NCBI RefSeq assembly: GCF_003334315.1
Contig: NZ_QOWR01000005.1
Reading direction: 5' to 3' (one strand)
Source of the DNA: Escherichia coli
Lineage (GTDB): Bacteria; Pseudomonadota; Gammaproteobacteria; Enterobacterales; Enterobacteriaceae
Length of the DNA: 64,000 nt
Below, piece after piece: positions 37,732-37,759 of the stretch. The position numbers and the translations under genes were made by a program. Each line of letters begins with the position of its first letter. The stretch's first letter is position 1. A model generated the notes under the pieces. That model was not told the DNA's origin. It searched no databases and was given only the letters and a program-made list of their open reading frames with translations.

Positions 37732-37759
37732 TTTGACCGATACTGTGAAATATCGTTCC
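37732..37759 (-). promoter_or_regulatory. Putative sigmaE promoter of bepA
   Basis: On the minus strand: GGAACga, 15-nt spacer, GTCAAA, about 30 bp upstream of the bepA ATG; fits the sigmaE consensus GGAACTT-N15/16-TCAAA. Confidence 0.45.

Follow-up and report, generated by a model that had tools for sequence, protein, structure and literature searches.

We conclude with high confidence that the motif on the minus strand at 37732-37759 of the window, by which we mean the whole 64,000-nt stretch of DNA analyzed here, is the promoter through which sigmaE (RpoE, sigma24) controls the bepA-yfgD operon, with the PbepA start predicted at 37726. A sequence-only reading of the same DNA had proposed a sigmaE-type promoter for bepA, and the proposal is supported by the motif, its spacing and position, a cross-genus footprint and published regulon membership. 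The promoter is already known and is an ordinary feature of a known regulon member; what is given here is base-level coordinates and the cross-genus footprint for a promoter that is cited mostly by name.

The window is E. coli chromosome, and many complete E. coli genomes match a 601-nt stretch around the motif with 100% identity, the annotations there being bepA (beta-barrel assembly-enhancing protease) and yfgO. In MG1655 the gene order is hyfR-focB-yfgO, then the divergent bepA-yfgD, then hda, with the bepA start at 2616094, so that window coordinates were converted as MG1655 = 2616094 + (37700 - window coordinate). The start of bepA in the window is the ATG at 37700 (MFRQLKK...), which is the same start as in the MG1655 annotation; the longer open reading frame in the bepA frame, beginning at 37772, merely reflects an in-frame ATG further upstream. 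Pfam domains PF01435 and PF14559 were found on bepA orthologues. BepA acts as a protease/chaperone on LptD and BamA, which it either assists or degrades. The bepA/yfgO intergenic region measures 212 nt, and an Rfam scan of it returned nothing: its single match had an E value of 0.82 and scored 15 bits, where the gathering score is 53. The two genes of the operon are as follows.

36237-37700, minus strand: coding sequence of bepA (yfgC), for a periplasmic M48 metalloprotease of 487 aa that contains TPR repeats (open reading frame list and RefSeq annotation)
35857-36216, minus strand: yfgD, encoding an ArsC-family protein, 3' of bepA and co-transcribed with it (PMC7075262)

Upstream of bepA, the minus strand had been claimed to read GGAACga, a 15-nt spacer and GTCAAA; read directly from the sequence, this is exact, and the strand across the motif is gGGAACGAtatttcacagtatcGGTCAAAtgactatcttcagaaatacaggatagaggttATG. 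The elements that we assign to the promoter are listed here.

37753-37759, minus strand: sigmaE -35 element GGAACGA (consensus GGAACTT), with the GGAAC core intact at 37759-37755; MG1655 2616035-2616041
37737-37752, minus strand: spacer of 16 nt between GGAACGA and TCAAA, or 15 nt (37752-37738) if the G of GTCAAA is counted in the -10
37731-37739, minus strand: sigmaE extended -10 CGGTCAAAT, against the consensus (T/C)GGTCAAAA, with the core TCAAA at 37736-37732; MG1655 core 2616058-2616062
37726, minus strand: predicted +1, A37726, with a 5-nt discriminator and 26 nt from the -35, placed by published spacing rules; MG1655 ~2616068
37701-37726, minus strand: predicted 5' UTR of 26 nt, ATCTTCAGAAATACAGGATAGAGGTT, carrying the ribosome-binding region

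The sigmaE model set out in Rhodius 2006 (PLoS Biol 4:e2; PMC1312014) consists of a -35 of GGAACTTTT and a -10 of (T/C)GGTCAAAA; the spacer, counted from GGAACTT to TCAAA, is 15-19 nt with 16 strongly preferred, the discriminator is 5-6 nt, the distance from the -35 to +1 is 25-28 nt, and +1 is a purine. The fit to the sigmaE consensus that had been claimed for the bepA motif held in its GGAAC core, its 16-nt spacing, its strand and position upstream of bepA, and its extended -10, which matches at 8/9 positions. The GTCAAA at 37737-37732 lies 31 nt 5' of the bepA ATG, and the start expected by the sequence-only reading, about 7 nt past GTCAAA, agrees with the published discriminator of 5-6 nt (PMC1312014); an alternative predicted +1 is T37725. 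The ribosome-binding region of the predicted leader comprises ACAGGA (37714-37709) and AGAGG (37707-37703), of which ACAGG is invariant across genera. Two features that accompany many sigmaE promoters are absent. The T-tract downstream of the -35 GGAAC is replaced by GATA where the consensus has TTTT, the site reading GGAACGATA, and there is no A/T-rich UP-like sequence upstream of the -35, a feature that is frequent and not obligatory; the 11 nt 5' of GGGAAC are the GC-rich GCGGCGCGGTG.

Within the 64-kb window, the exact pattern GGAAC-N17-GTCAAA occurred once on both strands together, against 0.04 expected from shuffles, while allowing one mismatch gave two matches against 1.23 expected; since the latter count is near expectation, only the exact match is statistically notable by itself. 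Sites were also counted against a 14-position consensus (GGAACTT plus GGTCAAA, spacing 15-17), using a simple match score rather than a position weight matrix, and the window had three sites of at least 12/14, where block shuffles gave a mean of 1.0. The bepA motif is the only site of at least 12/14 in the 212-nt intergenic region, where the next best scores 10 and has a poor -10.

The strongest evidence obtained in this analysis is the cross-genus footprint, a pattern drawn from comparison of orthologous upstream regions. A BepA search of species-representative genomes gave 80 loci from about 25 enterobacterial genera, with 84-99% protein identity, and the best sigmaE-like site was sought in the 130 nt 5' of the ATG in 81 sequences. 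The spacing of this best site was 16 nt in 73/81, its distance from the ATG was 29-34 nt in 75/81, and GAAC was kept at the -35 position in 77/81 orthologous upstream regions; across the 81 sequences the best sites fell into 60 distinct sequence variants in which the spacer sequence was free. The pattern GAAC-N17-GTC[AG]AA was present at -70 to -50 from the bepA ATG in 72/80 loci and GAAC-N18-TCAAA in 65/80, and only 2-3 occurrences of these patterns were found in the other ~706,000 strand-positions of the 80 loci. When 69 distinct variants were compared in an alignment anchored on GAAC...TC, which makes those six columns invariant by construction, the unforced -10 columns were likewise conserved: the G before TC was invariant, the G preceding it was present in 61/69, and the three A's in 61-67/69 (88-97%). 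The spacer columns of these variants were almost unconstrained (0.1-0.6 bits), and of the bases that separate the -10 from the ribosome-binding site, the A at the predicted +1 was conserved best (60/69 variants).

The picture was the same when 25 genera, each represented by a single sequence, were aligned with MAFFT without anchoring. Columns conserved at 90% or more were confined, 5' of the ribosome-binding site, to GAAC, G-T-C-.-A-A and, in a separate TA.A.T box, three positions; the -35 columns G53, A54, A55 and C56 were invariant or at least 90% conserved, and the -10 columns G74, T75, C76, A78 and A79 were at least 90% conserved. Salmonella carries GGAACGA-N14-GGTCAAA at the same location, and a bepA orthologue of 71% identity, with different upstream neighbours, retains CGAACAC-N14-GGTCAAA. 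At the orthologues of 46-51% identity (L085-L089) no convincing sigmaE site was found with the E. coli consensus, so that either the promoter may be absent there or the local consensus may differ, and the conservation is thus demonstrated within Enterobacterales only. A recognisable GAAC-N-TCAAA was also missing from the region ~30-90 nt 5' of bepA, by the best-site scan, in three loci, namely L041 and L056 (Enterobacteriaceae UBA7338 / 'Escherichia sp.' ESNIH1), the latter reading GGAAACTTACGTATCAATTGATTAAGATG, and L052 (Kosakonia arachidis); to judge from these upstream sequences, the lineages have apparently lost the sigmaE promoter or had it replaced. As a separate observation on gene order, in L086 and L088 (BepA 47-49% identity) the divergent AI-2E transporter gene (yfgO/perM-like) and the 3' ArsC-family gene still adjoin bepA, a tusA-like gene having come to lie between bepA and the transporter gene, and the retention of these neighbours indicates that the synteny is far older than the detectable promoter.

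Within E. coli the motif varies little. An exact match to 28 nt or more of the 30-mer containing it was present in 4852/5426 complete E. coli genomes, and a 40-mer was identical in 4849/5427 records, the other 578 (~10%) lying in the 95-99% identity band. In 3/3 sampled 40-mer variants the difference was a C-to-A substitution in the spacer at 37747 (TTTCACAG to TTTAACAG), with the -35 and -10 untouched. The most divergent E. coli strains sampled, and MG1655, differed from the window at flanking positions only, e.g., 37771 and 37722; relative to MG1655 the window has two intergenic differences, which on the minus strand are T for C at 37722 and T for G at 37771. E. coli strain A24 (locus L093, NZ_CP028751.1) carries, at 1476-1556 of that locus, a deletion equivalent to window ~37750-37950, which takes the intergenic region through the bepA sigmaE -35 together with the 5' end of yfgO and leaves the -10 and leader intact; the deletion is either natural or an assembly artefact.

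Comparison with the sigmaE regulon literature was in agreement with the promoter assignment. Bury-Mone 2009 (PMC2731931) found yfgC-yfgD (b2494-95) induced 2.4- and 1.5-fold on rpoE overexpression and marked both genes 'Rh', i.e., as reported by Rhodius 2006, while other papers describe yfgC as 'a gene regulated by sigmaE' (PMC3306311) and BepA expression as being under sigmaE regulation (PMC4072712). Lacoux 2020 (RNA 26:382; PMC7075262) starts from 88 RegulonDB/EcoCyc sigmaE transcription start sites (TSSs), of which 40 were mapped and 22 assigned as true TSSs; PbepA is among the 22 re-mapped by tagRNA-seq as 5'-triphosphate ends, initiation frequency changed significantly after sigmaE induction for 21/22 with PbepA named, and bepA-yfgD is termed a 'sigmaE-dependent bicistronic operon'. 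Given this regulon membership and the presence of PbepA in the literature, the promoter has already been catalogued, and we infer that the TSS PbepA is the start predicted at 37726. A full-text literature search with promoter sequence strings returned unrelated chance matches only, and the gene names and coordinates near 2616068 / 2614090 had no match in the supplement text searched, probably truncated, of the sigma-factor ChIP study of Cho 2014 and the Cappable-seq study of Ettwiller 2016.

Three other explanations of the motif were weighed against a sigmaE promoter of bepA. The resemblance could be due to chance; the motif would then not act as a promoter, and sigmaE would control bepA from elsewhere or indirectly. 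Relaxed matches to the consensus are indeed not rare, as about one site of at least 12/14 is expected per 64 kb and hence dozens per genome, and the -35 flank of the bepA site is non-consensus. However, the exact pattern is expected only 0.04 times per window, the intergenic region has no other sigmaE-like site, both elements and their spacing are conserved across genera when the spacer sequence is not, and a sigmaE-responsive TSS, PbepA, has been mapped (PMC7075262); we thus hold a chance origin to be highly improbable. It is also very unlikely indeed that the functional promoter is instead the overlapping sigma70-like TTCACA-16-TATCTT (37749-37722, minus strand). This sequence was reported by our sigma70 consensus scan with 9/12 positions, yet one such match was found against 1.2 expected in shuffles, the TTCACA and TATCTT hexamers are not conserved in Enterobacter, Klebsiella, Kluyvera and others, and MG1655 and most E. 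coli have TATCTC, which lacks the essential final T of the hexamer. The scan fired here because the T for C at 37722 creates TATCTT, and we discarded the candidate as a strain-specific chance match.

Conservation by itself names no factor, and the GAAC and GTCAAA boxes could in principle be the site of another transcription factor or of an ECF sigma other than sigmaE. FecI, the only other ECF sigma known in E. coli, serves the fec promoter. The sigmaE model is matched specifically by the two boxes, by their 16-nt spacing and by how far they lie from a conserved purine, and the operon responds to rpoE overexpression and sigmaE induction (PMC2731931; PMC7075262), which makes recognition by a different factor extremely improbable in our view.

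A further reading complements the sigmaE promoter rather than competing with it, namely that bepA has tandem promoters, with a conserved sigma70-type promoter for basal expression and the sigmaE promoter for stress induction. The candidate sequence is given here.

37776-37804, minus strand: tentative sigma70-type promoter TTGAGT-17-TACACT, proposed by inference only, with TTGAGT at 37804-37799 and TACACT at 37781-37776

It looks like a housekeeping promoter that is weak yet conserved, and its predicted start would lie immediately 5' of the sigmaE -35. A TAnAnT box was present in 73/81 orthologues (TACACT in 52, TAAACT in 15) and lay 20-29 nt 5' of GAAC in 68 of those 73; in the unanchored 25-genus alignment, the A, A and T positions of this TA(C/A)ACT box were at least 90% conserved. 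Of the near-invariant bases A2, A4 and T6, two (A2 and T6) are the most important ones of a sigma70 -10. A T-rich hexamer also lies ~17 nt upstream of the box in the examples read by eye (TTGAGT-17-TACACT in E. coli, TTTTCA in Klebsiella/Raoultella, with TTTTCA-17-TAAACT in Klebsiella). Against this, TTGAGT-17-TACACT matches only 8/12 consensus positions, for which reason the sigma70 scan did not report it, falling below threshold in E. coli and Klebsiella, and the TA(C/A)ACT box might instead belong to the divergent yfgO promoter or be bound by a regulator. We consider the tandem arrangement plausible, at somewhat under an even chance. We put forward with rather more reserve, as a possibility, the broader proposal that two promoters form a conserved module in the bepA control region, in which an unannotated sigma70-type promoter stands directly 5' of a sigmaE promoter without T-tract or UP element. 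If true, BepA would be made constitutively and boosted only at high sigmaE activity, which would be a small refinement of known biology with no new mechanism.

Two other sigmaE-like sites in the window were noted in the vicinity of bam genes. The best site in the window is GGAACTT-N17-TCAAA (54525-54553, plus strand), which lies inside dapA (54032-54910) ~370 nt upstream of bamC (54924-55961). Among seven genera, the dapA codons GGG-AAC-TTA and ATC were nucleotide-identical in 7/7 and AAA in 5/7; the neighbouring codons vary at third positions, and gene-wide only 28/195 (14%) of the codons for the same residue were invariant in the 7 genera. That the motif codons are invariant while their neighbours vary points to selection on the DNA motif, and on sequence grounds the site is likely to be an internal sigmaE promoter for bamC. 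On rpoE overexpression dapA was uninduced, with bamC at 3.1-fold and purC at 2.4-fold (Bury-Mone 2009; PMC2731931), and the contrast between dapA and bamC fits a promoter inside dapA. The induction of NlpB is left mechanistically unexplained ('unknown mechanism') in Rhodius 2006 (PMC1312014), and Dartigalongue 2001 is flagged in PMC2731931 as reporting dapA and nlpB to be sigmaE-regulated; the dapA-internal promoter may already be known or annotated elsewhere. The second site, GGAACTT-N14-TGACAAA (14786-14813, plus strand), scores 12/14 with 16-nt spacing and lies inside yfgM (14511-15131) upstream of bamB (15142-16320); as judged from the match, it may serve bamB-der as an internal sigmaE promoter. 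All of yfgM, bamB and der have been reported as sigmaE-induced (PMC2731931).

For bepA, the sigmaE promoter would operate at the end of a known pathway, in which, according to PMC1312014, unassembled outer-membrane proteins lead through RseA/DegS/RseP to proteolysis of the anti-sigma factor RseA and to free sigmaE. Degradation of RseA in response to unfolded outer-membrane proteins would allow the freed sigmaE to join core RNA polymerase; its region 4 would then recognise GGAAC at 37759-37755, and its region 2 would recognise and melt GTCAAA at 37737-37732. Transcription would start at about A37726, and an mRNA with a 26-nt leader would be read through bepA and then yfgD to yield the BepA protease/chaperone and YfgD. 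That one unfolded-OMP stress circuit governs both BepA and the BAM complex restates a known point, and the significance of the finding beyond annotation is small; it does show a genuine ECF-sigma promoter to be recognisable from sequence alone.

In Rhodius, Mutalik and Gross 2012 (NAR 40:2907; PMC3326320), GAAC is common to all sigmaE promoters and the downstream T-tract is found in Cluster 1 only, whereas the T-tract-less Cluster 2 binds more weakly and fires mainly at high holoenzyme, UP elements being unneeded; cluster membership is defined there by activity at different RNAP concentrations. No T-tract directly follows GAAC at the bepA site (GGAACGATA). With its GAAC core and missing T-tract the bepA site resembles Cluster 2, a class assigned here by sequence analogy, and the bepA sigmaE promoter is probably a weaker, 'Cluster 2'-like one, because its -35 has no T-tract and no A/T-rich UP element is present. 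The modest 2.4-fold induction fits such a weaker-binding promoter class.

Compared with the Rhodius 2006 model, the bepA site is alike in its GGAAC core, 16-nt spacing, -10 matching at 8/9 positions, purine at the predicted +1, 26 nt from the -35 to that predicted position, and placement directly 5' of an envelope-biogenesis gene; it is unlike that model in having GATA for the T-tract and GCGGCGCGGTG in place of an UP-like sequence. It shares with the PbepA of RegulonDB/EcoCyc, as used by Lacoux 2020, the same gene and the same sigma factor, and it is the sole sigmaE-like site in the intergenic region; the motif is almost certainly the catalogued PbepA. The same regulon logic is seen with other OMP-assembly genes, since sigmaE TSSs are given for bamA, bamD and bamE in PMC7075262, and bamB and bamC are sigmaE-induced (PMC2731931). 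The bepA promoter is intergenic, unlike the sigmaE-like sites upstream of bamB and bamC, which lie inside the coding genes yfgM and dapA.
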